A stretch of DNA of 64,000 nt, taken from assembly GCA_934233745.1 (NCBI GenBank), contig CAKQGN010000001.1:258621-322620 (forward strand), written 5' to 3'. Position numbers and translations under genes: made by a program. The notes below the pieces were generated by a model, which ran no database searches, was not told the origin of the DNA, and was given only the letters and a program-made list of their open reading frames with translations. Each line of letters starts with the position of its first letter. The first letter of the stretch is position 1. This DNA comes from an uncultured Clostridia bacterium. Its GTDB lineage: Bacteria > Bacillota > Clostridia > Christensenellales > CAG-917. Below, piece after piece: positions 14,368 to 64,000 of this stretch.

Positions 14368-14393
14368 GCGAAACAACAAGGAAAATTGGTTTT

Positions 14394-15515: not shown

Positions 15516-15621
15516 AATTGCTTTGGTTTTTAGCGGCGTTTGCGCCTTATTGAATCTTTCAAACGTCATTGCGAGCGCAATGCTGCCGTGCAAATCTCAA
15601 CATAGCAACATTTTGGAATTG

Positions 15622-15664
15622 AAAAAAAAGAAACGACGGATTCAAAATCCGCCGCTTCTTTTTT
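15622..15664. terminator. bidirectional intrinsic terminator
   Basis: A-run, imperfect 12-bp hairpin (GAAACGACGGAT/ATCCGCCGCTTC), T-run, between the convergent rSAM gene and clpB. Confidence 0.7.
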
Positions 15665-15724
15665 ATAGGGAAAATTATGAGGGTTCAACGTTTGTTGCGT
15701 GCAGTATTTTTCGGGTGCAACCGA

Positions 15725-18313
15725 TTAGTGCTTTGAAGTGACAAGCATTTCGCCGTCTTTTGCGTCAACCACGATTGTGTCGCCTTCGTCCATATTGCCT
15801 TGAAGGATTGCGCGGGCAACTTTGGTTTCGACGTTGCTTTCGATATAACGCTTGAGCGGTCTTGCGCCGAACGTCACGTCATAGCCGCCGTCTACGATGA
15901 GGTCTTTTGCCGCCTGCGTAACTTCGAGTTTGAGGTTTTGCTTGTCGAGCCTCAATTCGAGCTTTTTGAGCATGATGTCGATAATCTTGTAGACGCTTTC
16001 TCTTGTGAGCGGCGTGAACAGCACGGTATCGTCAAGCCTGTTGAGGAACTCGGGGCGGAAGGTTTGTTTGAGCAACTTGTCTATTTGCGCTTTCGCATCG
16101 TCGGTGATGTTGCCGTTTTTGTCGATGTTGTCGAGGATTATGCCGCTGCCGAGGTTGGACGTCAAAATGATGATTGTGTTTTTGAAGTTGACCGTTCTGC
16201 CTTGGCTGTCGGTGATTCTTCCGTCATCGAGGACTTGGAGCAGGATATTGAACACGTCGGGGTGCGCCTTTTCGATTTCGTCAAAGAGGACGACGGAGTA
16301 GGGTTTTCTTCTCACAGCCTCGGTGAGTTGACCGCCTTCGTCATAGCCGACGTATCCCGGAGGTGCGCCGATAAGACGAGATACGCTGAATTTTTCCATA
16401 TACTCCGTCATATCGATACGAACAATATTGCGCTCGTCGTCAAAGAGGTAGGACGTAAGAGTCTTTGCAAGCTCGGTTTTACCGACGCCCGTAGGTCCGA
16501 GGAAGAGGAACGAGCCGATTGGTCTGTTCTCGTCCGAGATGCCTGCACGGGAGCGGAGAACCGCCTCGCTCACGGCGTCCACAGCCTCGTTTTGACCGAT
16601 AACCCTCTTGTGAAGCTCGTCGGAAAGGTGGAGCAGTTTCTCCTTTTCGCTCTCCATAAGTTTGGTTACGGGGATACCCGTCCATTTTGCCACGATTTTT
16701 GCGATTTCGTCCGCAGTCACTTCGTCCCGCAAGAGTGTAGAGCCTTTTGCGGATTTCTTTTCCACTTCTTCGAGCTTCTTGTTGAGCGCGGGCAGTTCGC
16801 CGTATTGAAGTTGAGCCGCTTTGCCGTAGTCGCTGTTGCGCTTTGCCTCCTCGATTTGAAGATTTATGCGGTCAATTTCGGCTTTTGTGTCCTGAACGCT
16901 GTTGATTTCCTTCTTCTCGTTTTCCCATTGCGCTTTCATTTCGTTGAATTTGTCGTGGAGTTCGGCAAGTTCTTTCTTGATGGATTCGCGGCGATCAACC
17001 GAGAGTTTGTCGGTTTCCTTTTCAAGAGCCATTTCCTCGATTTCGAGTTGCATAATCTTACGGCTGATGACGTCCATTTCGGTGGGCATACTGTCGATTT
17101 CGGTACGTATCATAGCGCACGCCTCGTCCACGAGGTCGATTGCCTTGTCGGGCAGGAATCTGTCGGTGATGTATCTGTCCGAGAGAGTCGCCGCCGCAAC
17201 GAGTGCCTGGTCGTGAATACGCACGCCGTGGAAGATCTCGTATCTTTCTTTCAAGCCACGCAAGATTGCGATTGTGTCCTCAACCGTAGGCTCGTTGACC
17301 ATGACGGGTTGAAAACGTCTTTCAAGAGCAGGATCTTTTTCGATATATTTGCGGTATTCGTCGAGGGTGGTTGCGCCGATGCAGTGCAACTCGCCTCTTG
17401 CAAGCATAGGCTTGAGCAGGTTGCCTGCGTCCATGCTGCCTTCGGTTTTGCCTGCGCCGACAATTGTGTGCAGCTCATCGATGAACAGAAGCATTCTGCC
17501 GTTTTGTTTCTTGATTTCGCCAAGAACGGCTTTGAGCCTTTCTTCAAATTCACCACGATATTTTGCGCCTGCGATGAGCGCGCCCATATCGAGTGCAAAG
17601 ATGTGTTTGTCTTTGAGTCCCTCAGGGACGTCGCCTCTGACGATACGTTGGGCAAGACCTTCTGCAATTGCCGTTTTGCCGACGCCCGCCTCACCGATAA
17701 GAACGGGGTTGTTTTTTGTCTTTCTTGACAAAATTCGAATGACGTTTCTTATCTCGTCGTCACGTCCGATGACGGGATCGAGCTGACCGCGAGCGGCTCT
17801 TTCAACCATATCGTGACCGTATTTGTTGAGTACGTCATATGTGTCTTCGGGGCTGTCGCTTGTCACTTTTGAGGTTTTAACCTGTGAAAGTGCGTCCATA
17901 AAACCCTTTTTGGTGAGTTTGCACTTTGCAAATACTGCTTTGAGGGCAGGAGTTGGGTTGTCGAGGATTGCCGCAAAAATATGTTCGACGCTCACAAAAT
18001 CGTCGCCCTGTTTCTTTGCGTCTTTTTCCGCTTGCGCAAGCATGAGGGAGCAGTCTTGCGACAAATATACCTCGCCTGCGCCGTTGCCCGTGACGGAGGG
18101 CATTTGAGAGAGAATTCTGTCGATTTCTCTCACCAGTTGCGGAGCGTCCGAGCCGCACTTTGTGACGAGTTTGGGGATAAGTCCTTCCTCGTCGCTCAGA
18201 AGCGCATAGGCAATATGCTCCTTGCAAAGTTGTTGATGATGTCTTTCAAGCGCAAGGTTTTGCGCCGCATTTATAGCGTCCAATGCTTTCTTTGTGAATT
18301 TGTTGGTGTCCAT
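15725..18313 (-). CDS. clpB: ATP-dependent chaperone ClpB
   Basis: N-domain, two AAA+ modules ([16 protein letters not shown]) and a long coiled-coil M-domain. Start placed at the second ATG (18313), 8 nt after AGGAGG. Confidence 0.95.
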
Positions 18314-49966: not shown

Positions 49967-50200
49967 ATGGAAAAGCTACTCAGTGATTTCGTTATAGGTG
50001 AACAGGGCGTCATCAAATCCGTTGCAGGAGACGGAAGAATCAGACGTCGTTTGTTCGACATGGGCGTGACACCCGGCGCTGAAGTTTATCTCAGAAAGAA
50101 AGCACCGCTTGGCGACCCTATCGAAGTGACAATCAGAGGTTATGAATTGACGCTTCGCAAAACCGAGGCATCTGCCGTTACAATGGAGGTTAATGACTGA
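49967..50200 (+). CDS. feoA: FeoA-family protein (second copy)
   Basis: GEQGVIKSV...RRRLFDMGVTPGAEV...GDPIEVTIRGYELTLRKTEA. Confidence 0.85.
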   Translation: MEKLLSDFVIGEQGVIKSVAGDGRIRRRLFDMGVTPGAEVYLRKKAPLGDPIEVTIRGYELTLRKTEASAVTMEVND

Positions 50201-52815
50201 TGAAAAGATTTGCTCTTGCAGGCAACCCCAACTGCGGTAAAACAACTTTGTTTAACTCGTTGACGGGTTCCACGGCACACGTAGGCAACTGGCCTGGCGT
50301 CACGGTCGATAAAAAAGAGGGTACATACAAAAAATGCGCAGAACCCATTTCGATTGTTGACCTTCCCGGCATTTATTCACTCTCTCCGTATACACCCGAA
50401 GAAGTGATTTCGAGAAATTACATCCTTGAAGAAAAACCCGATTGCGTCATCAATATCGTGGACGCAACAAACCTCGAACGCAACCTTTATCTTACGACTC
50501 AGATCATGGAAATCGACGTTCCTATGATTATCGCGCTCAACATGATGGACACCGTTGAAAAGAACGGTGACAAGATTGACGCAAAGAGTCTTGAAGAAAA
50601 AATCGGTCTTCCCGTTGTCGAGATTTCCGCTTTGCGCGAAAAAGGCCTTGACGAACTCATGCAGAGAGCGTACGAAGTTTGCGGGCAACCGAGAAAGGGC
50701 AGAACCGTACTCGAAGGCACTCAACTTACGCACCTCATCAACGATTGCAGAATAGCACTCGAAGGCAGCGGAGTCGAGAATTCTCTTTTCCATGCGGTGA
50801 AACTTGTCGAACTCGATGAAATCGAAGTCGGTCAACATCCGCAGGCGGCTCAAATGGTCGAGGAGTTCAAAAAGACCTTCAAAGACGACGTTTTCGGAAC
50901 GGATTTCGAAGCAATCGTCGCAGACGCTCGCTATAAGTACATTTCAAAGAACTATTCTTCTGTGGTAACAAAGAAAGAAAAAACCGAAAAAGAAAAGCTC
51001 AGCGCATCCGACAAAGCGGATAAGGTGCTTACGCACAAGGTTTGGGGTATTCCTATCTTCCTTGTGATTTTGTTTTTGGTGTTCCACCTCACGTTTGCAG
51101 AGGACTTCTTGTTCCTCGGTGCAGGCGGTGTGTTCGACAAAGAAGCGGTAGCATATCTCGACGCGCAGGCAACTCAGGTTGCGGACTTTGCTCAAAACCC
51201 GTATGACGAAGGGACAACCTATTATACCGAAGACGGATTCAAAGCGGAACTCACGTTTGCGGAGGACGGTAAACTCGAATCCGTCGAACCAAAAGCGCAT
51301 GTTTACACCGCGGATCACGAATTGAAATACGTTGACGAACTTGATGAAAGTCAACTGAATCAAAAATTCTATGCCGACGAAAAAGGCAAATGGGAAGTTA
51401 CCGTTGCGGCAAACGATGACGGCGAACTCGAATCGTCTTTCGTAAGCAGTATAGACGAATGGTGTTCGGGAATCAGTGCGGCAACCTTCTTCGGATATGA
51501 AGAAAGCGTTTACGGCCCGGGAGTCATTCTTGCAAACATCCTCAACACGTTTACCGAGTTCCTTAGCGTTTGCGTAAACGAAGGTCTTACGCTTGCAGGT
51601 GCGCCGGAATGGTGTACGGGACTCATCGTTGACGGCGTTCTCGGCGGCTTGTTCGCGGTGCTAGGTTTCTTGCCGCAAATCCTCTTGCTGTTCTTGTTCT
51701 TCTCGATTTTGGAAGACAGTGGCTATATGGCGCGTGTGGCGTTCATTCTCGACAGAATTTTCAGAAGATTCGGCTTGTCGGGCAGGGCGTTCATGCCGAT
51801 GATTATGGGCTTCGGTTGCTCCGTTCCCGCATTCATCAACACACGTACTCTTGCCGACGAAAACGAGAGAATCGCAACGATCAGAGTCATTCCGTTCTTC
51901 AGCTGCGGCGCAAAACTCCCGATTCTTACGGCTATCGCGGGCGGTATCGCAACACAGTTCGGATTCTCGCACCCCGACGTCATCACCTATATGATGTATG
52001 TGCTGGGCGTGGCAGTTGCAATCTGCGCAGTCATCCTGATGCGCGCAACGACAATGAAGGGCGAAGTTCCCCCGTTTATTATGGAACTGCCCGCATATCA
52101 CATGCCTCAACCCAAAAACCTGGCTCTCCACCTTTGGGACAAGACGAAGCACTTTGTGAAAAAAGCATTTACAATCATCCTTGCGTCGACAATCCTCATT
52201 TGGTTCATCAGCCATTTCAGCTGGACATGGCAATTCCTTGCGGACGAACAAATGGATAAATCGATTCTTGCAGGTATCGGCGGACTCATTCAACCTCTGT
52301 TTACACCGCTCGGATTCGGTTCGCAACTTAAAGCATTCGGTTGGGTGTTCGCAGTTGCGGCAATCACAGGTCTTATCGCCAAAGAGAACGTTATCGCAAC
52401 GTTCGGCACATTGGCGGCATGTATCGTCGGCGGTATGATTGACGTCGAAGCAGACGGCGGTATCGCCGCGGCAGGCACAATGATCGCCGCAACAGGCATC
52501 GACGTGCCGGGCTTGATTGCATTCATCGCATTCAACATGCTCACGATTCCGTGCTTTGCAGCCGTTGCAACCGCAAAGGCAGAACTCCCGACAAAGAAGT
52601 CATACAGAATGACATTGCTCTTCTGGGTAGGCACAAGCTATATCGTGTCCATGATGATCTACCTCATCGGCGCATGGTGGTGGACAGTGTTCATCTTCGC
52701 AGCGATTTGGGCGGCGATCATCACGCTGATCGTGCTAGACAATAAGGGTAAGATCAACGTCAAGAAGTTCTTTGACGACCTCGGCGCAAAACTCAAAATA
52801 AAAAAGAACGCGTAA
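50200..52815 (+). CDS. feoB: ferrous iron transporter FeoB with an enlarged first extracytoplasmic loop
   Basis: G-domain GNPNCGKTTLFN, DLPG, NMMD. Membrane-domain motifs LEDSGYMARVAF and GFGCSVPA. 871 aa. Confidence 0.95.
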   Translation: MKRFALAGNPNCGKTTLFNSLTGSTAHVGNWPGVTVDKKEGTYKKCAEPISIVDLPGIYSLSPYTPEEVISRNYILEEKPDCVINIVDATNLERNLYLTTQIMEIDVPMIIALNMMDTVEKNGDKIDAKSLEEKIGLPVVEISALREKGLDELMQRAYEVCGQPRKGRTVLEGTQLTHLINDCRIALEGSGVENSLFHAVKLVELDEIEVGQHPQAAQMVEEFKKTFKDDVFGTDFEAIVADARYKYISKNYSSVVTKKEKTEKEKLSASDKADKVLTHKVWGIPIFLVILFLVFHLTFAEDFLFLGAGGVFDKEAVAYLDAQATQVADFAQNPYDEGTTYYTEDGFKAELTFAEDGKLESVEPKAHVYTADHELKYVDELDESQLNQKFYADEKGKWEVTVAANDDGELESSFVSSIDEWCSGISAATFFGYEESVYGPGVILANILNTFTEFLSVCVNEGLTLAGAPEWCTGLIVDGVLGGLFAVLGFLPQILLLFLFFSILEDSGYMARVAFILDRIFRRFGLSGRAFMPMIMGFGCSVPAFINTRTLADENERIATIRVIPFFSCGAKLPILTAIAGGIATQFGFSHPDVITYMMYVLGVAVAICAVILMRATTMKGEVPPFIMELPAYHMPQPKNLALHLWDKTKHFVKKAFTIILASTILIWFISHFSWTWQFLADEQMDKSILAGIGGLIQPLFTPLGFGSQLKAFGWVFAVAAITGLIAKENVIATFGTLAACIVGGMIDVEADGGIAAAGTMIAATGIDVPGLIAFIAFNMLTIPCFAAVATAKAELPTKKSYRMTLLFWVGTSYIVSMMIYLIGAWWWTVFIFAAIWAAIITLIVLDNKGKINVKKFFDDLGAKLKIKKNA

Positions 52816-52861
52816 GTCGCGCAAAATGCGCAATACAGACTTTGCGTGAAAAGAGCGAAAT

Positions 52862-53185
52862 ATGACAAACTTAGTTTTTGAATCTGTTTTGTCGGCAATG
52901 CACCCGATCGGAATCGTGACGATAGTCGTTGCGGTTGCGATTGTGGCAGGCGTCATCATCGCGTCAATCGTAAGAAAAGCGAAAGGCAAGCCTTCGCTCG
53001 GAAGCGATTGCGCAGGATGCTCGCACGCAGGGAAGTGCAACGGACATTGCAACTTGCAAGACAAAGATGTCGATTGGACGGAACTTGTCAAGCAACGCAA
53101 AGCCGAACTCGAAGCTCAACGCTTAAAAAGCGAGAAAGAATCTCAACAATCGCAGGATTCGGAGCATGCCGACAGCAATAATTAG
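52862..53185 (+). CDS. FeoB-associated Cys-rich membrane protein with extended charged tail
   Basis: One TM helix, then KAKGKPSLGSDCAGCSHAGKCNGHC. Position immediately after feoB. The start may be the internal ATG at 52898. Confidence 0.7.
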   Translation: MTNLVFESVLSAMHPIGIVTIVVAVAIVAGVIIASIVRKAKGKPSLGSDCAGCSHAGKCNGHCNLQDKDVDWTELVKQRKAELEAQRLKSEKESQQSQDSEHADSNN

Positions 53186-53558: not shown

Positions 53559-53645
53559 GCGGACATGGCGGAATTGGCAGACGCGTTAGATTCAGGTTCT
53601 AATTTTCGAAAGGAAGTGGAGGTTCAAGTCCTCTTGCCCGCACCA
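53559..53645 (+). tRNA. tRNA-Leu (anticodon CAG)
   Basis: 87-nt class-II tRNA folded by hand. D-arm TGGCGGAATTGGCAGACGCG, anticodon loop TT-CAG-GT, long variable arm, T-loop TTCAAGT, encoded CCA. One A:C mismatch in the acceptor stem (5:68). Confidence 0.85.
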
Positions 53646-53859: not shown

Positions 53860-53888
53860 TTGACAAATAAGGTATAAAACTGTATAAT
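53860..53888 (+). promoter_or_regulatory. sigma-70-type promoter of the abiE pair
   Basis: TTGACA - 17 nt - TATAAT. Confidence 0.7.
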
Positions 53889-53923: not shown

Positions 53924-54547
53924 ATGGAACTTGTTAGATGCTTAAAAAATCAATATGGAGAAAACACGCCTATCTTTTTTGAAGATATTGCCAATGTTTG
54001 TTCCGGATATACAAGAGGACGTGTATATCAACTTATTGATGCCGCTATGAATAGCGGCCTTTTGGCTAAGGCGGGATATGATTGCTACTATATTCCTACA
54101 ATAACTCCGTTTGGCAAGTCCTTGCTTAATCCCCGAAAGGTGATTGAGAAAAAATATATATCGAACAAGGGTGAAGTGTATGGCTTTTATACGGGGTTGG
54201 CATTGCTTAATAGTTTTGGCATAACGACTCAAATGCCGAACGTCATAGAAGTTTTCACAAACAATGAAGCCACAAAATCAAGACATGTGACAATAAACAA
54301 TCAGACGATTATAGTCAAAAGGGCGCGTACTACAATAAATAACTCGAACTACAAAGAGATGATGCTTTTGGAATTGTTCAACCTTGCGGATATTCGTTCT
54401 ATTGACGCACGGGCGACACAAAAAATCGTTGATTATATGAAACAGAACAATATATCCATTCAAGGTATTATGAAATACGCCAAGTTCGTTCCTGCGAGAG
54501 CTATAAAGAATTTTATGAGTAGCGAGGTGCAAAATGTTTTTGCATAA
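53924..54547 (+). CDS. abiEi: AbiEi-family antitoxin / transcriptional regulator (type IV TA)
   Basis: 207 aa; N-terminal wHTH-like segment (GRVYQLIDAAMNSGLLAKAG). Paired with, and overlapping by 14 nt, an AbiEii gene. Confidence 0.7.
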   Translation: MELVRCLKNQYGENTPIFFEDIANVCSGYTRGRVYQLIDAAMNSGLLAKAGYDCYYIPTITPFGKSLLNPRKVIEKKYISNKGEVYGFYTGLALLNSFGITTQMPNVIEVFTNNEATKSRHVTINNQTIIVKRARTTINNSNYKEMMLLELFNLADIRSIDARATQKIVDYMKQNNISIQGIMKYAKFVPARAIKNFMSSEVQNVFA

Positions 54548-55436
54548 AGATAAAAATCTATTTGAACAAACGATATTTCAAGTTGCTCAAAGAAGTGGAA
54601 TTGAGTCCGGAATTATAGAAAAGGATTATTATGTTTCCTTATTGCTCAAAGAATTGAGTCAAACGCTTCCGTCTATGATATTCAAAGGCGGAACGTCTTT
54701 GTCTAAATGCCATAAAGTAATAAAAAGATTTTCTGAAGACATCGATATTACGTTGGATGAAAATCATTTGTCGCAAGGCAATCGCAAGAGCGTAAAAACG
54801 GCGATTGTAAACGCATGCGAAAAGCTGGGATTCTCTATATCGAATCTCGATGACATAAAAAGCAGAAAGGATTTCAACCATTACAAGATAGAGTATGCCG
54901 GCTTGTTTATGATTGACGGGCTAAAGCCTGATATAGAAATAGACACGATTTTTTCAATTCGTTCTTTTCCGTATGAGCAAAAATTGGCTACGAGTATAAT
55001 TTATGATTATCTTCATGAAATGGGACTAGATGAGTTTATCGACACATATGAACTCTTGCCGTATCCTGTAAACACACAATCTATCGATAGAACTTTCATT
55101 GATAAGGTTTTTGCATTGTGTGATTACTATTTGGAAGGTGAAACAAAAGAGAGGTCACGGCATCTTTACGATATTTATAAACTGTATCCGCTTTTATCTG
55201 ATGACAATGTGATAAGAGTGCTTGCAAAAGAAACACGAGATACAAGGGCAAATAGTCCGTTTTGTGAATCGGCAAAATCTACAAAAGGCATAAACGTACT
55301 TCTTCAAGAAATAATCGATAAAGAGTATTATAGGATTGATTACAAGGAAAACACATCAATCTTATTATATGACGATATATCATATGAAGAAGCGATAACT
55401 GTTCTTGCGAAAATAATTAGCAAAAAACTGTTTTGA
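54534..55436 (+). CDS. abiEii: AbiEii/AbiGii-family nucleotidyltransferase toxin
   Basis: Motifs IIEKDYYVS, FKGGTSLSK and RFSEDIDIT (the NTase GS...DxD pattern of DUF1814/AbiEii). Confidence 0.8.
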   Translation: MFLHKDKNLFEQTIFQVAQRSGIESGIIEKDYYVSLLLKELSQTLPSMIFKGGTSLSKCHKVIKRFSEDIDITLDENHLSQGNRKSVKTAIVNACEKLGFSISNLDDIKSRKDFNHYKIEYAGLFMIDGLKPDIEIDTIFSIRSFPYEQKLATSIIYDYLHEMGLDEFIDTYELLPYPVNTQSIDRTFIDKVFALCDYYLEGETKERSRHLYDIYKLYPLLSDDNVIRVLAKETRDTRANSPFCESAKSTKGINVLLQEIIDKEYYRIDYKENTSILLYDDISYEEAITVLAKIISKKLF

Positions 55437-55472: not shown

Positions 55473-55626
55473 GGATGAACCCGGTTGAACCAGAAAGGTT
55501 TGACCGGGTTTTTCTTTTTCTAATATTTATAATATTAGGCATACATTTCAAACCTAGCATACATTTCAAATCTAATGGTTTTCTTTTTATATTCATTATT
55601 AAACGATGTTTTGGAGTGAGAAAACG

Positions 55627-55655
55627 TTGACCGATGACGAATATTGTGGTAAAAT
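55627..55655 (+). promoter_or_regulatory. sigma-70-type promoter upstream of the dlt-like cluster
   Basis: TTGACC - 17 nt - TAAAAT, preceded by TGG (extended -10-like). About 245 nt upstream of the first start codon. Confidence 0.65.
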
Positions 55656-55903
55656 GTAAAAAATGTATGTTAAAATCAAGAGGTTGTATGGTTTTTCGGT
55701 TTTCAATCCATACATGTGCACGAGTGGCTTTGTGCAGAGATTTTGACAGCATTGTTTGTGGTATTGACCGAACTTTGGCGGCATGACGTCGCAAGGGCGG
55801 TGTTGTTCTTATGCCGAGAAGGATTGCAACGAAAGGTAGGATTCCTTTTGGCGGTTTTTGGGGTTGATATGCAATCGGCGTTAGATTGAAATCGGAGATA
55901 TCA

Positions 55904-56875
55904 TTGGAAAAATTGATTAAAAGCAAAAAAGAAAAGGCTTTTTCGTTGATAGGATTTATCCTATTGTTTATCCTTTTGACTTTATTGTTGTCGGCGGCGG
56001 TCAAACCCGACTCACCTATGGACTGCACGGATAAGCGCAAGTTTGAAGCTCTGAGGGTGTTTGACGAGCCTAACAATACTTTGGACGCACTGTTTTTTGG
56101 GCACAGCGGCGTGTTTTGCGGCATAAATCCTATGGAAATGTATGCAAAGTACGGCTTTACGTCGTACGATTGCTCGTTTGCATCGCAAATGCCGTGGGAA
56201 ACCACCGAATTTTTGAGAGAAACCCTGAAAAGACAAAAACCGAAAGTCGTCGTTGTGGACGTTGACCAGCTCCTGTTTAAAAACATCAATCACAGGGCGG
56301 ATTACGTGTGGTCGCAAATTAGGCGCGCCGCACCCATAATCGACAACCATACGGCGTGGAAAAAGTTTTTGCCCGGGGGCGAGCAGCGAGAGCGAAACTT
56401 CAACAAAGGGTATAGGCGTTCAAGGCGCGTTTCGCCATACGACAGCGACGGCAGTGTCGGCGGAAAAAACAAGAATAACGGCGACAAACAATATAAAATC
56501 GCCGCAATGAGCCTCAAGTGCTTTGACGAGATCGTCGAGCTTTGCAAAGAGCATGGCGTGGAGCTTGTCTTTGTGGAATTGCCATCCAAAAAAAGGTGGA
56601 ATAACTCAACCTACAATGCCGTCAAAAAGTACGCAGACAAGAAAGGCGTGCGCTTTATCGACGCAAACCAAAGAGAAAAAGAGTTCGGCTTCAATTGGAA
56701 AAAAGATACTTCGGACGGCGGCGAACACCTCAACGAAAGCGGCGCGCTCAAAACGTCGCTGTGGCTTGGCAAAATTCTTCAAGAGGACTACAAACTCCCC
56801 GACAGGAGAGAGGACAAAGCCTATGAGTTTTGGAAAGAGGACTACGCAAAGTATTTGGTCTCGCAAAAACAATAA
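55904..56875 (+). CDS. membrane-anchored SGNH/GDSL-like (DltD/AlgX-type) acyl-transfer protein, paralog 1
   Basis: TTG start 5 nt after GGAGA. N-terminal TM anchor. Putative Ser block LFFGHSGV and the Asp/His block DGGEHLN. About 40% identical by eye to 58883-59842. Confidence 0.65.
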   Translation: MEKLIKSKKEKAFSLIGFILLFILLTLLLSAAVKPDSPMDCTDKRKFEALRVFDEPNNTLDALFFGHSGVFCGINPMEMYAKYGFTSYDCSFASQMPWETTEFLRETLKRQKPKVVVVDVDQLLFKNINHRADYVWSQIRRAAPIIDNHTAWKKFLPGGEQRERNFNKGYRRSRRVSPYDSDGSVGGKNKNNGDKQYKIAAMSLKCFDEIVELCKEHGVELVFVELPSKKRWNNSTYNAVKKYADKKGVRFIDANQREKEFGFNWKKDTSDGGEHLNESGALKTSLWLGKILQEDYKLPDRREDKAYEFWKEDYAKYLVSQKQ

Positions 56876-57075
56876 TCGTACATTAATCTCAAGGATGTTC
56901 GGCATTTTATAAAATTGCCCGACAAATGATTGACAATATGAGCGAAAAATCGTACGCTGTCTCAAAAAGATACATTGTTTAAGTTAAATATATTTATATA
57001 TTTAGCATAAATTGCACCATAACGAGAATACGCAACATTATGTAATCATTGTCGGGAGATATACTGAGGATAATC

Positions 57076-58866
57076 ATGAACAAGGTAACTTTAATATTTT
57101 TAGCATTTTTGGCAGGCGCAGCCGTCTTGTACTACGTCGTGCCGAAAAAAATACGCTGGGTTGTCTTGCTGATTGCAAGCATAGGCTTTTACGCTGTGAC
57201 GGACAAGTACCTCATTGCGTTTGTTTGCCTTACGACAATCAGCGTGTATTTTGGCGCGCGCGGTATTCAGAAAAACAACGATAGGCTCAAAAAGCCTGCG
57301 CCGCTCAAAGAGGCGCAACCCACTGTCGCAATGTCTGAAAAGCAGGACGCGCAAGCAAATGTCGAAACTGTGGAATCCGCAAACGTAATATCTTGTGAGG
57401 TTGCTGCCGATTGTGACAACGCTGTCGTTGACGGCGCGGCGGAAATGCCTAGCGCAGCGCAAGAAACGGGGCAAACCCTTGCCGATTCGGATTCAAACAA
57501 CTCGGATAAAAAACGCAAGAAAAAAGTCAAACAACCCCTTGAAGGCAAAGCACTCAAAGAACACATAAAAAAGCAAAACAAGGCTTTAATCGCGTCGATT
57601 ATTATACTTAATCTTGCGATTATAGGATTTTTGAAGTATTTCAACTTCTTTGGCAGCACGGTCAACTCACTCCTTGAACTGTGCGGTGCAAAGGGCAGAA
57701 TCCCTGCGCTCAAACTGTTTTTGCCTTTGGGCATTTCATTCTATACTTTGCAAGCGATAGGCTATCTTATCGACGTGTATAGAAAAAAGTATGCGGCGGA
57801 AAGGAATTTTGCAAAAGTTGCGTTGTTCCTCTTGTTTTTCCCTCAAATTCTCGAAGGGCCTATCGGCAGATTCGACAAGCTCGCCGACCAACTTTACGAG
57901 GGGCGTTCGGCAAACTATGAAAACATTATTTTCGGGCTTGAGCGTATCGCTTGGGGCTTGTTCAAAAAAATGGTGGTTGCCGACAGGCTGTATATGCTCG
58001 TCTACAAGATTTCCGAGTCACCGAGCGAATATTCGGGCGTTGCCAGCTTGATGTTTATCGTGTGTTATACGTTGCAGCTTTACGCCGATTTTTCGGGATT
58101 TATCGACATCGCAATCGGCGGCGGACAACTGTTTGGAATCAAAATGGACGAAAACTTCCGCCAGCCGTTCTTTGCAAAGAGCGCGCAAGAGTTTTGGCAA
58201 AGGTGGCATATCACCCTCGGCTCTTGGCTCAAAGACTACGTTTTCTATTCGGTTGCGCTCTCGCCAAGGCTCAACAAGGGGTGCAGTAAACTCAAAAAGA
58301 AACACAAAAATCATTTCACCAAAATGCTACCGACGGCGGTTGCGCTGCTTGCGGTGTGGATTTGCAACGGCTTGTGGCACGGCCCTGAATGGAAGTATAT
58401 CGTTTTTGGATTGTACTATTTTGTGATTATCGTGTCGGGTATGATGCTCGAACCGCTATTCAAAAAAATCGCCGAAAAAATCAAGCTCAACCTCGACGGC
58501 AAGGGGTGGGGAGTCGTAAGACATTTGAGAACGCTGTTGATTATCTTTGTCGGCGAAACCATTTTCGGCGCAAAAACCCTCAAAGACGCCGTTCATATTC
58601 TCGGCTCAGTGTTTGTGCCCTATCGCGGCAACTTCTTCTCGCTCGGTCTTGACTACAAGGAATTTATCATTGCCGTGCTTGGCGTAATAACCATTTTCAT
58701 CGTCGGCATTGTCAAGGAAAGGGGCGTGGATATAAGGCAGAATTTGTACGAAAAGGCAGTCCCCGTTCGCTGGGTGACGTTTTTGGCTCTCACGTTTTCG
58801 ATAATGGTGTTCGGCGCATACGGCGGAATGTATTCGGTTGCACCGTTCATATACGGCAATTTCTGA
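57076..58866 (+). CDS. MBOAT-family O-acyltransferase (DltB/AlgI-like) with a low-complexity loop insertion
   Basis: MBOAT core FWQRWHITLGSWLKDYVFY with the conserved His, plus NGLWHG. Multi-TM. An extra hydrophilic segment of about 110 aa (about 57262-57589). Confidence 0.85.
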   Translation: MNKVTLIFLAFLAGAAVLYYVVPKKIRWVVLLIASIGFYAVTDKYLIAFVCLTTISVYFGARGIQKNNDRLKKPAPLKEAQPTVAMSEKQDAQANVETVESANVISCEVAADCDNAVVDGAAEMPSAAQETGQTLADSDSNNSDKKRKKKVKQPLEGKALKEHIKKQNKALIASIIILNLAIIGFLKYFNFFGSTVNSLLELCGAKGRIPALKLFLPLGISFYTLQAIGYLIDVYRKKYAAERNFAKVALFLLFFPQILEGPIGRFDKLADQLYEGRSANYENIIFGLERIAWGLFKKMVVADRLYMLVYKISESPSEYSGVASLMFIVCYTLQLYADFSGFIDIAIGGGQLFGIKMDENFRQPFFAKSAQEFWQRWHITLGSWLKDYVFYSVALSPRLNKGCSKLKKKHKNHFTKMLPTAVALLAVWICNGLWHGPEWKYIVFGLYYFVIIVSGMMLEPLFKKIAEKIKLNLDGKGWGVVRHLRTLLIIFVGETIFGAKTLKDAVHILGSVFVPYRGNFFSLGLDYKEFIIAVLGVITIFIVGIVKERGVDIRQNLYEKAVPVRWVTFLALTFSIMVFGAYGGMYSVAPFIYGNF

Positions 58867-58882
58867 TATAAGAGAGGATAGA

Positions 58883-59842
58883 ATGGAAAAAGTAAAAAGT
58901 AAAAAAGAAAAAATCATTTCAATTATAGGCTTTATCATTTTGCTTGCGGTTCTCACGGTTATGCTCTCGCTGTTTTTTAAACCTAATAATCCAATGGATT
59001 ATGCAGATAAACGCACTGCAAAAGGATATCGAGTCTATGATGAGCCTAATAACACTCTCGATGTATTATTTTTTGGTCATAGCGCCGTGTATTCTGCCGT
59101 ATCACCTATGGAAATATACAATAACTATGGGTTTACGTCATTTGCTTGTTCTTATCCACTACAAATGCCATGGGAAACCGCAGACTTTTTAAAAGATGTT
59201 TTAAGGAAACAGTCTCCAAAAGTTGTTGTGATGGATATAGATAGCCTGTGTTATGACATAAAGAGGACTAATATTAAGAAAATCTATGATGACGCGGTAC
59301 GCAAGAAAAAGTATCCTCTTTTGCAAAACCATATAGCGTGGAAAGATTGGCTCCCAAATGTGGAGATCAGAGAGCGAGATGTTAACAAAGGGTATATTAT
59401 CCATAAAAAAAAGAAGCCGTATAAAGGCAATCGTGCGTTTAAAGAAACAGATAAAAGGTTTGCTACAACTCAAGAGTTTATTAAAGGTCTTGATGATGTG
59501 GTAAAAATTTGCAGAGAAAAAGGCATTGAACTATTTTTAATGGAATTGCCAAACAAGACTAGATGGTCTTATGAGAAGTTTAATACCGCTTCTGATTATG
59601 TGAATGAACGTGGACTGCATTTTGTTGATTTTACACAATATGAAAAGCAAATGGGATTCGATTGGGTAAATGATACTATGGACGAAGGGGATCATCTTAA
59701 CTATTACGGAGCAGTAAAACTAAGTGCACATCTTGGCAAAATCCTTGCAGAAAAGTATGATTTGCCGGATAGAAGAAATGACGAAACATATGCGTTTTGG
59801 AAAGAAGATTTTGAACAATATAAAAAACGCTGTGGAAAGTGA
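58883..59842 (+). CDS. membrane-anchored SGNH/GDSL-like acyl-transfer protein, paralog 2 (AT-rich)
   Basis: Same architecture as paralog 1 (LFFGHSAV, DEGDHLN). RBS AGAGAGGA. Confidence 0.65.
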   Translation: MEKVKSKKEKIISIIGFIILLAVLTVMLSLFFKPNNPMDYADKRTAKGYRVYDEPNNTLDVLFFGHSAVYSAVSPMEIYNNYGFTSFACSYPLQMPWETADFLKDVLRKQSPKVVVMDIDSLCYDIKRTNIKKIYDDAVRKKKYPLLQNHIAWKDWLPNVEIRERDVNKGYIIHKKKKPYKGNRAFKETDKRFATTQEFIKGLDDVVKICREKGIELFLMELPNKTRWSYEKFNTASDYVNERGLHFVDFTQYEKQMGFDWVNDTMDEGDHLNYYGAVKLSAHLGKILAEKYDLPDRRNDETYAFWKEDFEQYKKRCGK

Positions 59843-59849
59843 GGAACAT

Positions 59850-61352
59850 ATGGAAAAAAGAATAAACAACGTGTTGGAGTTCTTGTGCGAAAGCGCAAAA
59901 AAGTATCCCGACAAAGTGGCGTTTGCGGACGAAACGGAATCGATAACCTACAAGCAACTCGTTTTCGAGGCGAGAAAAATCGCAAGCGGAATTGCAAAAA
60001 AAGTTGCTCCGCGCACACCCGTTGCCGTGCTTGGCGAAAAGAGCGTGCGTGTGGTCAAAATGTTTTTTGCGTGCGTATTTGCAGGCTGTTTCTATGTGCC
60101 GCTCAATCCCTTGCATCCCGAGGAGCGCAGAAAGAGAATCCTCGACACTTTGAAAAATCCGCTCGTCCTTGTCAACGAGGACTCGATAGGACTTTTGCCC
60201 GAGGGCGTAAACGAGGAGTCGGTGGTGCTGTTCAAGGATATAGAGGGAAGCGAGGTTGACGAGTTGCTGTTGCAGGATATTGCAAAAGGTCACGTTGACA
60301 TCGACCCGCTCTACGTTATGTTTACGTCGGGTTCGACAGGCACACCGAAGGGTATCGCCGTGTCCCACCGCTCGGTCATCGATTTTATCGACGAATTTAC
60401 CGATGTTTTCGGCATAAGCGATTGCGATGTCATCGGCAACCAAGCTCCGTTCGATTTCGATGTGTCGGTGAAGGACGTATATTCGACGATTAAGTGCGGC
60501 GCAACAATGCAGATTATTCCCAAAAAGAAGTTCTCATTTCCTACGTTACTCATCGACTATCTCATCGAACGCAAGGTTACGACTCTCGTTTGGGCGGTGT
60601 CCGCGCTGTGCATTTTGTCAACATTCCGCGCATTTCAGTACAAAATCCCCCCAACCATAAACAAGATTTTGTTCAGCGGCGAGGTTATGCCCATAAAGCA
60701 CCTCAATGTGTGGCGACAAGCGTTTCCAAACGCAACGTTCGTCAATCTCTACGGTCCGACCGAAATCACCTGCAACTGCACTTATTTTGTGTTGCCCAAG
60801 GATTTTGCCCAAGACAGTTTGCCAATAGGCAAGGCGTTCAAAAACGAAAAAGTGTTCCTTTTGGACGAGAACGACAGGCTTGTCACAGCCGTGGGCGAGG
60901 CAGGCGAAGTGTGCGTGTCGGGCACCTGTTTGTCGCTCGGATATTACAACAACAAGAGCGAAACCGCAAAGGCGTTTGTGCAAAATCCGCTCAATGACGC
61001 ATACCTCGAAACTATATACAGAACGGGCGACTTGGCGCACTATGAGGCGGACGGAAACTTGTATTTCAACGGCAGAAGGGACTTTCAAATCAAGCATATG
61101 GGGCATCGTATCGAGCTTAGCGAAATCGAAAACGTGATGATGTCTAACGAGAATATAAACCGCGCGGTTTGCATTTTCGACAGCGAAAAGGACAAAATCA
61201 ACGCGTTTTACGTCGGCAGTATCGAGCCTACGGACGTAATCGTGTTTTTGAGAGATAAGTTGCCTGCGTTTATGATTCCGCACAAATGCGTCAAAAAGGA
61301 CGTGTTCGAGCTGAACGAAAACGGCAAAATCGACAGAAAAAAACTTGTATAG
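59850..61352 (+). CDS. DltA-like amino-acid--carrier-protein ligase (adenylation enzyme)
   Basis: Adenylation core motifs YVMFTSGSTGTPKG, YGPTE, YRTGD, GRRDFQIKHMGHRIEL and NGKIDRKKL. 500 aa, stand-alone. Confidence 0.85.
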   Translation: MEKRINNVLEFLCESAKKYPDKVAFADETESITYKQLVFEARKIASGIAKKVAPRTPVAVLGEKSVRVVKMFFACVFAGCFYVPLNPLHPEERRKRILDTLKNPLVLVNEDSIGLLPEGVNEESVVLFKDIEGSEVDELLLQDIAKGHVDIDPLYVMFTSGSTGTPKGIAVSHRSVIDFIDEFTDVFGISDCDVIGNQAPFDFDVSVKDVYSTIKCGATMQIIPKKKFSFPTLLIDYLIERKVTTLVWAVSALCILSTFRAFQYKIPPTINKILFSGEVMPIKHLNVWRQAFPNATFVNLYGPTEITCNCTYFVLPKDFAQDSLPIGKAFKNEKVFLLDENDRLVTAVGEAGEVCVSGTCLSLGYYNNKSETAKAFVQNPLNDAYLETIYRTGDLAHYEADGNLYFNGRRDFQIKHMGHRIELSEIENVMMSNENINRAVCIFDSEKDKINAFYVGSIEPTDVIVFLRDKLPAFMIPHKCVKKDVFELNENGKIDRKKLV

Positions 61353-61364
61353 GCGGATAGAACA

Positions 61365-62531
61365 ATGAGCAAAACCTCAATGAATTTGATAAAAACGCCC
61401 TCGTTCGTGTTCGATATAGACGCGCTAATCGATAGGGTGAACGGCATCAAAAGCCTGCTTGCGCACGGCGAAAAATTGTGCTATGCCATAAAGGCAAATC
61501 CGTTTCTTGTCAACGACCTCAAAGACGTTGTGGATTGCTTTGAGATTTGCTCCACGGGCGAGTTTCGCATTGCAATGCGCGCAGGTGTACCGCCCGAAAA
61601 AGTGGTGCTGTCCGGCGTCTACAAGGAGGAGGGCGATATAAGGGAAATCGTGGGCATTTGCAAGGATAAAGCGACCTATACGGTGGAATCGCCTTCGCAG
61701 TTTCACCTGCTTGAAAAAGTCGCAAACGAGTATGGCTTGACGCTCGACGTCATCTTGCGTCTGTCAAGCGGCAACCAGTTCGGAATGGACGAAAATACTA
61801 TTTTAGGCTTATTTTCCACCGAACAGAATACGCTCAAAATCAAGGGTATTCAGTACTACTCGGGGACGCAGAAAAAACGCGAGAAAATTTTGAAAGAGAT
61901 TGAAAGCGTTGTTGATTTTGCAAATAGGTTGGAGGCAAGCGGCAACACAATCGAAAGGATAGAATACGGTCCGGGGCTTAGGGTTGCCTATTTCGAGGGC
62001 GACGAGGAAGTTGACGAAAAAGCGGCTGTCGAGGAAGTGTCAAACGCCTTTGCAAAAAGCGACAACAAGCGCGAAATCGTCTATGAAGCAGGCAGGTTTA
62101 TCGCGGCATATTGCGGCAAGTATTACACCTCGATCGTGGATATAAAAAACACGAACGGAACGCAGTTTTGCATAGTTGACGGCGGCATAAACCACCTCAA
62201 TTACTATGGGCAAACGATGGCAATGAAAAAGCCGCATATAAGACAGTTTTCAAGCGATTTTGCCGAGAAAAAAGATGGCGAAAAACAGATTTGCACCATA
62301 TGCGGCTCGCTTTGCACCGTCAGCGACGTGCTTGTCAAATCCTTGCCGCTTGAAGATGTGAAAAGCGGAGATATACTTGAATTTGCAAGGACGGGCGCGT
62401 ACACCGTGAGCGAGGGAATCTACCTCTTTTTATCGCGCGATATGCCCCGAATCTACAAGAAAAAAGAGGGCAAAATCACGCTCGTTAGGGACGTTTTTTG
62501 TACTGATACACTCAATTTTGAAACAAAATAA
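61365..62531 (+). CDS. type-III-fold PLP-dependent enzyme (Orn/DAP/Arg decarboxylase family)
   Basis: PLP-lysine motif CYAIKANPF, then GGINH, CGSLCTVSD and RTGAYT blocks, collinear with diaminopimelate decarboxylase-type enzymes. Confidence 0.75.
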   Translation: MSKTSMNLIKTPSFVFDIDALIDRVNGIKSLLAHGEKLCYAIKANPFLVNDLKDVVDCFEICSTGEFRIAMRAGVPPEKVVLSGVYKEEGDIREIVGICKDKATYTVESPSQFHLLEKVANEYGLTLDVILRLSSGNQFGMDENTILGLFSTEQNTLKIKGIQYYSGTQKKREKILKEIESVVDFANRLEASGNTIERIEYGPGLRVAYFEGDEEVDEKAAVEEVSNAFAKSDNKREIVYEAGRFIAAYCGKYYTSIVDIKNTNGTQFCIVDGGINHLNYYGQTMAMKKPHIRQFSSDFAEKKDGEKQICTICGSLCTVSDVLVKSLPLEDVKSGDILEFARTGAYTVSEGIYLFLSRDMPRIYKKKEGKITLVRDVFCTDTLNFETK

Positions 62532-62554
62532 AACATAAATAAGGAGAATAAAAA

Positions 62555-62776
62555 ATGGACAAACTACTTGAAATACTCAGCGAAGTCAGACCCGACGTTG
62601 ACTTCAAAAACGAAACGAAACTCATCGACAACGGCATTCTCGACTCCCTCAACATAATGGAAATCATCGCTGAAATCAGCGACGAATTCGACATCGAACT
62701 TTCCCCTGCGGACATCGTTCCTGCAAACTTCAACTCTGCCGCGTCCTTGTGGGCAATGATTGAAAGATTGCAATAA
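62555..62776 (+). CDS. acyl/aminoacyl carrier protein (DltC-like)
   Basis: 73 aa; phosphopantetheine attachment motif GILDSLNIMEII. Confidence 0.8.
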   Translation: MDKLLEILSEVRPDVDFKNETKLIDNGILDSLNIMEIIAEISDEFDIELSPADIVPANFNSAASLWAMIERLQ

Positions 62777-62813
62777 ACTTCAATACGGGTTCACGCAAAG
62801 ATTCACAAACTGC

Positions 62814-62848
62814 AAAATATTGCCGTGGGGTGCTGCGGCAATATTTTT
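62814..62848 (+). terminator. intrinsic terminator ending the dlt-like cluster
   Basis: AAATATTGCCG-N10-CGGCAATATTT followed by a T-run. Confidence 0.8.
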
Positions 62849-63080
62849 GTTGCGTGGAAATTTTTGAAAAAAGCCTTGCGGAAAAGAGATATAATACTTT
62901 GTAGGATTCGCAATAACTATTACTTATTATTACTTATTATCAATTTGTAAAAAACATTTAGCATTTTAGACAAGAACGTTTGAGTTCGGTCAATCTTTTT
63001 CGCATGCGAATGAAAAATTTTCCTCAAAAGTACTTGACGTACATATGTCCATAATAGAAAACACCTTTAATCTTAAGAAG

Positions 63081-63854
63081 TTAGTTGTCATCTTCCAAAA
63101 TAATACAATTGATTTTTTTGCTTAATGCTGTGCAAGCATCAATGGCAATTATGCCGTCGCCATAGAAGGGCGAGTGGTCTGCATCTTCGCCGTATTGACT
63201 GCCTTTATGTTCAATGACGGAATGCCCGTAGGAGCAATTCCAGTGTCCGCAGACAATGGTTTTGCCTGTCTCTCGCACACCGCTTTTCCATGCCGCCATA
63301 CCGTTTGTCCATCTTGCGAAATACCAGTCTTCAGGCTCTGCGGTGCGCCAGTTGTCTATGACTTCGAATCGTTCAACTCCGTTTTCTAAGAATCGATAGC
63401 ATGGTATCCAGCCGTGGACAAAGATATAGTGCTTTGTCTCATAATATTTGATCATTGATGGAATTATCTTTTTTATAAACGGAGTGTTGAGCAATTGTTC
63501 CTTCACATGGTCACAATTGTCGGGGAGGATGGCTGTTGCATTCGTTAATTGAAGGATGGTGTCGGTGGTTTTGTTGGATCTGTGATGAGCAAACATATAG
63601 GACTTATTCTCCCAATTATAGATAATGTCCATCATCAGATCTTCATGGTTGCCGCGGATTAAAATGACCTGGTTTTTGTCCATAAGATCAAGAATGAACT
63701 GTTGGACTTCTATTGCCTCGCCGCCGCGATCCATAATATCGCCACAGATTATAAGCTTGTGCGGAAGGGTATCAGAAAAGAACCCTTTTTCGGTAAGAGC
63801 TTGTTTTAACTCGGTGTAAAACCCATGTATGTCTGCAACAACGTAATATTTCAT
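63081..63854 (-). CDS. calcineurin-like metallophosphoesterase
   Basis: Motifs ADIHG, CGDIMDRG, RGNHE and GHW. Start at the ATG at 63854. Confidence 0.85.
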   Translation of the reverse strand: MKYYVVADIHGFYTELKQALTEKGFFSDTLPHKLIICGDIMDRGGEAIEVQQFILDLMDKNQVILIRGNHEDLMMDIIYNWENKSYMFAHHRSNKTTDTILQLTNATAILPDNCDHVKEQLLNTPFIKKIIPSMIKYYETKHYIFVHGWIPCYRFLENGVERFEVIDNWRTAEPEDWYFARWTNGMAAWKSGVRETGKTIVCGHWNCSYGHSVIEHKGSQYGEDADHSPFYGDGIIAIDACTALSKKINCIILEDDN

Positions 63855-64000
63855 TCGGCACCCACTTTTGTCGGGAAACGGATAGCTTGTTGTGGCTACC
63901 CGTTTGTCCAACATGCACTCATGTCTACGAATGCAAAACTTATAGTAAATATTGCTTTTTGTTTGATGCTAAGATTAGAAATCGAACGAGTCGAAAGCCG

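Follow-up and report, generated by a model that had tools for sequence, protein, structure and literature searches.

A dlt-like operon of gut Clostridia joins a PLP decarboxylase to a carrier-linked MBOAT/SGNH system and is a candidate envelope acylation pathway

Operon Organization

The 64,000-nucleotide (nt) window analyzed here is from an uncultured Clostridia bacterium of the Christensenellales (contig CAKQGN010000001.1, positions 258,621 to 322,620 of the forward strand). At positions 55904–62776 of the window is an operon that resembles Dlt, the D-alanylation system, and additionally encodes a pyridoxal phosphate (PLP) enzyme of the decarboxylase type (table 1). A first-pass annotation described six co-directional genes, and the list of open reading frames (ORFs) bears this out, with all six on the plus strand at these coordinates. 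Its six family assignments hold as well, four through Pfam and NCBIfam matches and those of the two SGNH proteins through AlphaFold modeling of SGNH2 and Foldseek comparison. Boundaries were set from public gene calls for identical contigs, positions of ribosome-binding sites (RBSs), and the start of homolog alignments. Genes from that of the MBOAT to that of the carrier protein are 7–23 nt apart, the gap between the SGNH1 and MBOAT genes is 200 nt, and a GGAG/GAGG-type RBS precedes each of the six.

Table 1. Features of the operon, with positions in the 64,000-nt window
Feature	Position	Strand	Details
Promoter-like site	55627–55655	+	TTGACC, 17 nt spacer, extended -10 TG-n-TAAAAT
5' leader	55656–55903	+	~248 nt, GGAG RBS at end
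SGNH1, putative membrane-anchored SGNH-fold acyl transferase paralog	55904–56875	+	323 aa, TTG start, GGAG RBS
MBOAT, DltB-like core	57076–58866	+	596 aa
MBOAT hydrophilic loop	57262–57582	+	106 aa, rich in K, A, E, Q, N, D
MBOAT C-terminal FIYGNF (FxYxxF motif)	58846–58863	+	Tyr593 at 58852–58854
SGNH2, SGNH-fold partner, ancestral position 3' of MBOAT	58883–59842	+	319 aa
Stand-alone amino-acid adenylation enzyme	59850–61352	+	500 aa
Fold-type-III PLP decarboxylase, BtrK-like	61365–62531	+	388 aa
DltC-like carrier protein	62555–62776	+	73 aa; phosphopantetheine site Ser31 in LDSL
Terminator-like hairpin and U-run, operon 3' end	~62812–62852	+	-21.4 kcal/mol, z = -3.1

Conservation across Clostridia

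With one genome scanned per species, at least 581 encode a relative of the PLP enzyme, and nearly all of these are from Clostridia. The best 80 were fetched as loci (L-numbers below). All 80 are from Bacillota, mostly Clostridia, and include Christensenellales-like metagenome-assembled genomes and members of Blautia, Dorea, Enterocloster, Faecalicatena, Anaerocolumna, and Lacrimispora. When neighboring ORFs are clustered, 78 of the loci have the adenylation enzyme, 77 the PLP enzyme, 66 the MBOAT, and 59 the SGNH partner, and no further family is present in more than 10. The adenylation, PLP, and carrier genes (the trio) are contiguous in nearly all loci, with the PLP gene between the other two in ∼77, and proteins encoded across genera are 43–57% identical. 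The MBOAT gene is linked to the adenylation and carrier genes in 66 loci. Two gene orders are found, either the MBOAT and SGNH genes followed by those for the adenylation enzyme, PLP enzyme, and carrier, or the trio followed by the MBOAT and SGNH genes. The neighborhood, for which the first-pass annotation had recommended a survey, is strongly conserved, with synteny of the five core families in nearly all of the 80 loci. Families and synteny also uphold that annotation's central proposal, in which Dlt-like export by MBOAT and SGNH proteins is combined with enzymes for adenylation and PLP-dependent decarboxylation and with a carrier protein.

Public contigs that encode a given protein of the operon number up to 1000 or more, and homologs have generic names such as "MBOAT family O-acyltransferase," "hypothetical protein," and "amino acid adenylation domain-containing protein," with the PLP enzyme called "alanine racemase" or "diaminopimelate decarboxylase family protein." Searches of the literature found no description of a system in which an MBOAT/SGNH pair is combined with such a trio, and no curated family for it was found. 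These literature and family searches agree with the earlier expectation that the cluster matches no characterized pathway.

Predicted Protein Functions

The MBOAT has a match to Pfam (68.7 bits) and a sole match to NCBIfam, DltB, at 163.5 bits (cutoff 375). The DltB model stops at residue 507 of the 605-residue ORF. The ∼98 residues beyond it include two transmembrane segments (528–546 and 561–585) followed by FIYGNF; the catalytic His378 is in RWHITL. In Dlt, the invariant Tyr of the FxYxxF "acyl shuttle" is on a separate microprotein, DltX, and in PatA and other MBOATs that use acetyl-coenzyme A (acetyl-CoA), the motif is fused C-terminally on two added helices (PMC12148441). For DltX and PatA, shuttling through an acyl-Tyr is the established mechanism, and MBOAT/SGNH systems with a fused motif are said to function without a carrier protein (PMC12148441). 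Around the cluster, no DltX-like microprotein is present among ORFs of at least 20 aa. A separate DltX at the cluster was rejected; the motif is fused to the MBOAT C-terminus instead. At related loci, FxYxxF is present at 67 of 70 MBOAT C-termini, and the shuttle Tyr and catalytic His are invariant in all 64 MBOATs that were aligned. The protein is predicted to be a hybrid, with a DltB-like core and a fused shuttle motif of the PatA/AlgI type. Because FIYGNF is fused, no DltX is encoded, and genes for adenylation and carrier proteins are linked, we suggest that this MBOAT is fed by a carrier protein, which with a fused shuttle would be a combination outside of the published classification.

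The first-pass annotation had pointed out an unusual hydrophilic loop in the MBOAT. The loop is real but confined to the lineage of the window and L001, in which it is 106 aa long; L054 has 78 aa at this location and the family median is ∼20 aa. It was rejected as a functional hallmark since it is lineage-specific.

Neither SGNH protein has a passing match to Pfam or NCBIfam, and a profile of the SGNH family found nothing significant by sequence in the PDB. The family is recognizable from its fold only. In the AlphaFold model of SGNH2 (predicted local distance difference test [pLDDT] 88.6), the N-terminus is a transmembrane helix and the fold is that of SGNH hydrolases, matched by Foldseek with a probability of 1.0 to TesA, DltD, and PatB. 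Similarity to DltD (6pfx and 6o93; probability 1.0) is at low TM-scores of 0.34–0.41, and TesA and PatB match equally well. Catalytic candidates are Ser68 (in GHS), Asp271, and His275 (in D-G-G-E-H) in SGNH1, and Ser67, Asp267, and His271 in SGNH2. All 61 partners compared from related loci retain the block-I Ser and block-V His, and 60 of them have an Asp four residues N-terminal to that His.

The two SGNH proteins are 48% identical. It had been proposed that they deliver to one or two acceptors, but the duplication is not a feature of the system's design: a second copy is present only in the window and L010 among the 59 loci with a partner. Of the close relatives, L001 has SGNH1 only and L084 has SGNH2 only. 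The SGNH1 ortholog of L083 (426–1396) is frameshifted, with its sequence divided between two reading frames, and probably a pseudogene; SGNH2 is intact there. A separate acceptor for each paralog was therefore rejected on comparison of L001, L083, and L084. Because close relatives keep either copy alone, the paralogs look redundant, by their distribution, rather than dedicated to two acceptors.

The adenylation enzyme matches AMP-binding in Pfam (213 bits) and passes the amino acid adenylation model TIGR01733 (328.5 bits). It falls below cutoffs of the DltA equivalog TIGR01734 (305.8 bits; cutoff 559.85) and of TIGR03098 (205.5 bits; cutoff 592.35). Overall, it is about equally similar to adenylation domains of nonribosomal peptide synthetases (NRPSs) and to DltA, and in the substrate-binding core, DltA is the closest among solved structures. 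Ten specificity positions were placed by motif anchors and by alignments to LgrA and DltA, and yield the code DVK(V)LSLCNK, in which Asp204, Lys208, and Lys493 correspond to positions 235, 239, and 517. Across 78 loci, with proteins 46–64% identical, the code is DVK[IVT][LIM]S[LIV]CNK, and pocket residues Lys239, Ser301, Cys330, and Asn331 are fixed. Relative to DltA of Bacillus subtilis and B. cereus, the pocket differs at positions 236, 239, 301, 322, 330, and 331, with changes that include M239K, C301S, T322L, V330C, and A331N. The change at 301 replaces the D-Ala-selecting Cys of DltA. Because the code is nearly invariant and changed relative to DltA, one substrate, other than D-alanine, is predicted to be conserved family-wide. 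The fixed Lys239, at the floor of the pocket, suggests that this substrate still carries an extra carboxylate, that is, it may be acidic. A modification other than D-alanylation, as first proposed, is the likeliest outcome given that the pocket differs from that of DltA.

The carrier protein passes the PP-binding family (33.6 bits), and its Ser in DSL is conserved. Its best NCBIfam match is DltC; scores to DltC equivalogs are below cutoffs (36.8 vs. 68 bits and 25.3 vs. 52.35 bits).

The PLP enzyme matches both Orn_Arg_deC_N (69.7 bits) and Orn_DAP_Arg_deC (48.3 bits) in Pfam. Among NCBIfam models, the best match is TIGR03099 (180.5 bits; cutoff 478.45), followed by the LysA model TIGR01048 at 163.8 bits, also under its cutoff of 297.9. 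It also exceeds the cutoff of the Pfam family Ala_racemase_N (31.7 bits; cutoff 24.1). With a profile made from 15 family members, the best solved relative is BtrK (E = 4e-49), the L-glutamyl-[BtrI acyl-carrier-protein] decarboxylase, and diaminopimelate (DAP) decarboxylases follow at 3e-42; identity to BtrK is about 23–24%. SbnH and N-citrylornithine decarboxylase are also among the matches, and both act on side-chain-tethered amino acids. Key residues are Lys43, Tyr165 (YSGTQ), and Cys317 (LCT). Relative to DAP decarboxylases, the PLP-stacking His (HIGSQ) is replaced with Tyr (YSGTQ; YTGTQ in BtrK), R-P of the substrate-binding loop with Y-Y, and C-E-S with C-T-V; the L-C-T is common to BtrK. 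These replacements are kept across 81 sequences of the family, in which the catalytic Lys43, ExGR, DGG, Cys317, and GAY are invariant. A structure model (pLDDT 87.5) has the decarboxylase fold, and no racemase is among its top 50 fold matches. On this evidence, the enzyme is predicted to be neither LysA nor a racemase. That it is not an ordinary LysA, a possibility raised in the first-pass annotation as one that would undo its proposal, is evident in the TIGR01048 score and in the replaced DAP-binding residues.

Genomic Context and Variation

The trio is also present without an MBOAT in L062, L057, and L060. In L062 (5103–16111), it is inside a polysaccharide locus with genes for a UDP-sugar dehydrogenase, a hexapeptide acyltransferase, a DegT aminotransferase, a UDP-GlcNAc 2-epimerase, and an EpsG polymerase, a setting that suggests a further use of this donor module in decorating sugars in the cytoplasm. 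In L057 (8063–18049) and L060 (8366–17386), the order is carrier, adenylation enzyme, and PLP enzyme, followed by several proteins of ∼300 aa without Pfam matches, a second adenylation enzyme, an SDR-like protein, and a radical SAM enzyme.

Among neighboring ORFs of the 80 loci, no gene for acceptor synthesis is conserved beside the cluster. In a few Lachnospiraceae (L023 and L025; ∼14000–16860), a nucleotidyl-transferase gene comes next after the cluster, and behind it is a gene for an LtaS-like membrane protein with a sulfatase domain and a GBS Bsp-like repeat, a possible link to an acceptor of the lipoteichoic-acid type. A gene for an OmpR-type response regulator adjoins the cluster in eight of 80 loci (e.g., L074 6410–7123 and L020), a hint that a two-component system may control envelope stress here, as it is known to for dlt.

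Compared with its closest relative, L001, proteins of the operon are 86–97% identical. The PLP gene (61365–62531; L001 4765–5931) has 84.6% nucleotide identity, and the MBOAT, adenylation, and carrier genes have 93–95%. Because of this difference, the operon may be a mosaic that formed through recombination. Synteny of L001 and L083 with the window stops ∼115–120 nt past the stop codon of the carrier gene. Beyond this break (∼62890–64000), the window strain has a gene for a metallophosphoesterase on the minus strand (63081–63914), and past the end of the window (L081 11717–21167) are genes for a TraG/VirD4-type coupling protein of type IV secretion systems, a helix-turn-helix protein, VWA proteins, a Ser/Thr kinase, and TerD. 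The downstream flank looks like a mobile element.

Directly upstream of the operon are a tRNA-Leu(CAG) gene (53559–53645) and an AbiEi-like/AbiEii toxin–antitoxin pair (53924–55436). AbiEii scores 101 bits with Pfam, and the pair has its own strong promoter-like site (53860–53888) and a terminator (55477–55511). The promoter-like site of the operon, just 3' of this terminator, is a candidate based on its agreement with the consensus at 10 of 12 positions. Further upstream, the window encodes an unusually long FeoB (871 aa; gene within 50200–53185) with an apparent hydrophilic, acidic insertion after the first membrane segment, and 3' of it, a small FeoB-associated Cys-rich membrane protein (52862–53185).

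The 5' leader folds with z = -2.8 relative to shuffled sequence and has a terminator-like hairpin at 55830–55850. Rfam has no family that matches the leader or the gap between the SGNH1 and MBOAT genes. In comparison with L001, conservation of the leader does not exceed that of coding DNA, and a similar leader is absent at the other loci. The leader as a riboswitch was dropped, with no Rfam family and no conservation past the closest relative.

Comparison with Known Systems

The operon is real, conserved, and uncharacterized, and is a variant of the MBOAT/SGNH envelope-acylation theme rather than a new category. Like Dlt (DltX, DltA, DltB, DltC, and DltD), which D-alanylates teichoic acids in Bacillota, it pairs an adenylation enzyme with a small carrier, and an MBOAT with a putative SGNH-fold transferase anchored in the membrane, and the same logic would apply, in which a cytoplasmic thioester donor is passed to Tyr, to Ser, and then to a polymer as an ester. 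The operon differs from Dlt in that the PLP decarboxylase gene lies between those of the ligase and the carrier, and no Dlt equivalog model is matched above its cutoff. In addition, the shuttle motif is on two extra transmembrane segments of the MBOAT in place of DltX, the SGNH partner does not match DltD by sequence, and in the adenylation pocket, Met239 is changed to Lys and the D-Ala-selecting Cys to Ser.

Systems of the PatA/PatB and AlgI/AlgJ/AlgX type likewise have an MBOAT with a C-terminal FxYxxF on extra transmembrane helices and a separate SGNH partner. But those of the PatA/PatB type use acetyl-CoA without a carrier (PMC12148441), whereas an adenylation enzyme and a carrier are linked here. 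Because these are dedicated and linked to the MBOAT, the donor is presumably a protein-bound thioester of the aminoacyl type.

The donor half has its closest counterparts in antibiotic biosynthesis. Likened by described function, VinN/VinL/VinO (vicenistatin) and FlvN (fluvirucin) also combine a stand-alone adenylation enzyme, a carrier, and a PLP decarboxylase, and they make beta-aminoacyl thioesters that are starter units of macrolactam polyketides (PMC11284099). VinN loads 3-methylaspartate on the stand-alone acyl carrier protein VinL, the PLP enzyme VinO decarboxylates only after the thioester is formed, and FlvN does likewise with Asp (PMC11284099). In contrast to this operon, they belong to actinomycete secondary metabolism and feed a polyketide synthase via additional enzymes for protection and transfer (VinM and VinK); here, there is an MBOAT and no polyketide synthase. 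In butirosin biosynthesis (BtrI/BtrJ/BtrK), BtrK, the closest solved relative of the PLP enzyme with YxGTQ and LCT in common, decarboxylates gamma-L-glutamyl-S-BtrI, but loading is by an ATP-grasp ligase, BtrJ, instead of an adenylation domain.

The first-pass annotation likened the trio to the exosortase-A-associated cassette of Proteobacteria (TIGR03098/TIGR03099), which also ties a ligase, a PLP decarboxylase, and a carrier to a surface polysaccharide. This holds for the PLP enzyme, for which TIGR03099 is the best NCBIfam match, but not for the ligase, which is of the NRPS/DltA type and scores higher with TIGR01733 (328.5 bits) than with TIGR03098 (205.5 bits). Scores to both cassette models are far under cutoffs, no exosortase gene is present among neighbors of the 80 loci, and the hosts are Clostridia. 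We found no paper on the cassette. Taken with the loci that lack an MBOAT, these parallels suggest that the trio is a portable "decarboxylated aminoacyl donor" module, parallel to the cassette of Proteobacteria.

Proposed Pathway and Alternatives

We interpret the operon as an envelope acylation pathway in which a module for an aminoacyl group decarboxylated on its carrier is paired with an MBOAT/SGNH exporter. We assign this reading, for which all of the chemistry is inferred, a probability of roughly 0.6. A phosphopantetheinyl transferase encoded elsewhere would prime Ser31 of the carrier. The adenylation enzyme, its class assigned by homology and its substrate by the pocket, would activate one conserved, probably acidic, amino acid and thioesterify the carrier with it. 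The likeliest substrate would be Asp, via its side-chain carboxyl, with Glu second and DAP a distant third. By analogy with BtrK and VinO, the PLP enzyme would then strip the free alpha-carboxylate of the tethered residue to yield beta-alanyl-S-carrier, or 4-aminobutyryl-S-carrier from Glu. The loaded carrier would dock on the cytoplasmic face of the MBOAT and, if the chemistry of DltB/DltX and PatA applies, His378 would catalyze acyl transfer to Tyr593 of FIYGNF at the outer face. The invariant Ser of an SGNH protein, with SGNH1 and SGNH2 apparently interchangeable in this final transfer, would accept the acyl group and pass it to a hydroxyl of an envelope polymer or glycolipid. The predicted end product is a cationic ester other than D-alanine.

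Asp, and thus a beta-alanyl group, is favored because the pocket resembles the shallow pocket of DltA and because a 4-aminobutyryl group would tend to cyclize and a protecting step is absent here. This tendency would apply to a thioester or aryl ester of that group, and the butirosin route needs gamma-glutamyl protection of the amine of gamma-aminobutyric acid (GABA); the operon encodes no enzyme for gamma-glutamyl protection. Beta-alanine specifically as the acyl group is a tentative assignment, somewhat likelier to be wrong than right, and routes from Glu to GABA and from DAP to Lys are less likely.

Several observations weigh against this reading or parts of it. The substrate is deduced only from one invariant Lys and chemical logic, and the association of a basic residue at position 239 with an acidic or iso-linked substrate, which we take to follow from NRPS codes, was not confirmed in a literature check. 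Position 278 of the code depends on the alignment, with V from LgrA and T from DltA. Comparison of folds does not separate BtrK from DAP decarboxylases (TM-scores of 0.84–0.87 for both), and single-sequence scores to the two are nearly equal (90.6 vs. 88.7 bits). The acidic residue of the SGNH proteins is at H-4 rather than at H-3 of the canonical DxxH. Because the trio occurs at three loci that lack an MBOAT, its product is not tied to the MBOAT export route. Lastly, the LtaS-like gene is adjacent in only four of 80 loci.

As an alternative, the first-pass annotation had a dicarboxylic amino acid decarboxylated before it is activated and loaded. Free Asp would then become beta-Ala, free Glu would become GABA, or free DAP would become Lys, prior to loading and export. 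Most characterized enzymes of this PLP fold do use free substrates, and the end product would be identical. However, an invariant Lys239 is hard to explain if the extra carboxylate has already been lost, the enzyme lacks the Arg and Glu with which LysA binds DAP, BtrK and VinO/FlvN are precedents for action on carrier-tethered residues, VinN refuses the already decarboxylated acid, and the genes for the adenylation enzyme, PLP enzyme, and carrier are contiguous. We consider decarboxylation of a free substrate unlikely, if the most credible of the alternatives. The likelier order is loading, on-carrier decarboxylation, and then export, because Lys239 implies that an extra carboxylate is still present at activation. 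The same order could apply to meso- or LL-DAP loaded by one carboxyl, and decarboxylation of its distal center on the carrier would yield a lysyl-S-carrier and a surface lysyl ester. DAP decarboxylases are about as closely related to the PLP enzyme as BtrK is, the Arg that binds the distal carboxylate would be expected to be lost were that carboxylate held as a thioester, and Lys239 could hold the free distal carboxylate during adenylation. Conversely, the pocket code has no acidic residue for a second amino group, the pocket is of the shallow DltA kind, and free lysine is available and could be loaded directly, all of which make DAP a quite unlikely substrate.

Were the operon to make a small molecule or modified lipid, with the MBOAT and SGNH proteins acylating a lipid or glycolipid, the NRPS-like names of some adenylation homologs (e.g., "Tyrocidine synthase 3"), the extra adenylation enzymes and radical SAM enzyme with the trio in L057 and L060, and the lack of a conserved acceptor-synthesis gene would fit. 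But no condensation, thioesterase, or reductase domains were detected with Pfam or NCBIfam, characterized bacterial FxYxxF MBOAT/SGNH pairs all acylate an extracytoplasmic polymer (PMC12148441), and in L062 the trio is inside a polysaccharide locus, and we regard this possibility as very unlikely. Ordinary D-alanylation, with the PLP enzyme as a racemase of alanine or another amino acid dedicated to D-amino-acid supply, is highly improbable: the passing Ala_racemase_N score, the "alanine racemase" label of NCBI homologs, and an adenylation core closest to DltA are set against a decarboxylase C-terminal sheet domain, far higher scores with decarboxylase models, top sequence and fold matches that are all decarboxylases, an invariant decarboxylase-type Cys in LCT, and the missed DltA equivalog and five changed pocket residues of the adenylation enzyme. 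That the PLP gene is an ordinary lysA merely adjoining a dlt-like operon is effectively refuted. It does have a match to TIGR01048, but below the cutoff and with the DAP-binding residues replaced, and lies between adenylation and carrier genes in nearly every locus.

Significance

D-alanylation by Dlt tunes surface charge, resistance to cationic peptides, and host recognition in gram-positive bacteria, and is a drug target. The envelope acylation pathway we propose ties on-carrier decarboxylation, known only from antibiotic biosynthesis (VinO and BtrK), to the cell envelope, and offers a handle on the equally uncharacterized exosortase-associated cassette of ligase and decarboxylase. The rule that fused-shuttle MBOAT/SGNH systems use an acyl-CoA donor and no carrier (PMC12148441) appears not to hold here. 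We further propose, at a little less than even odds, that hundreds of species of gut Clostridia (Blautia, Dorea, Enterocloster, and Christensenellales) bear an undescribed omega-aminoacyl (beta-alanyl or gamma-aminobutyryl) envelope ester that is made on a carrier and exported by the first known carrier-fed MBOAT with a fused shuttle. The findings suggest that a large block of human-gut Clostridia may use a chemically different surface modification, made by a self-contained route.

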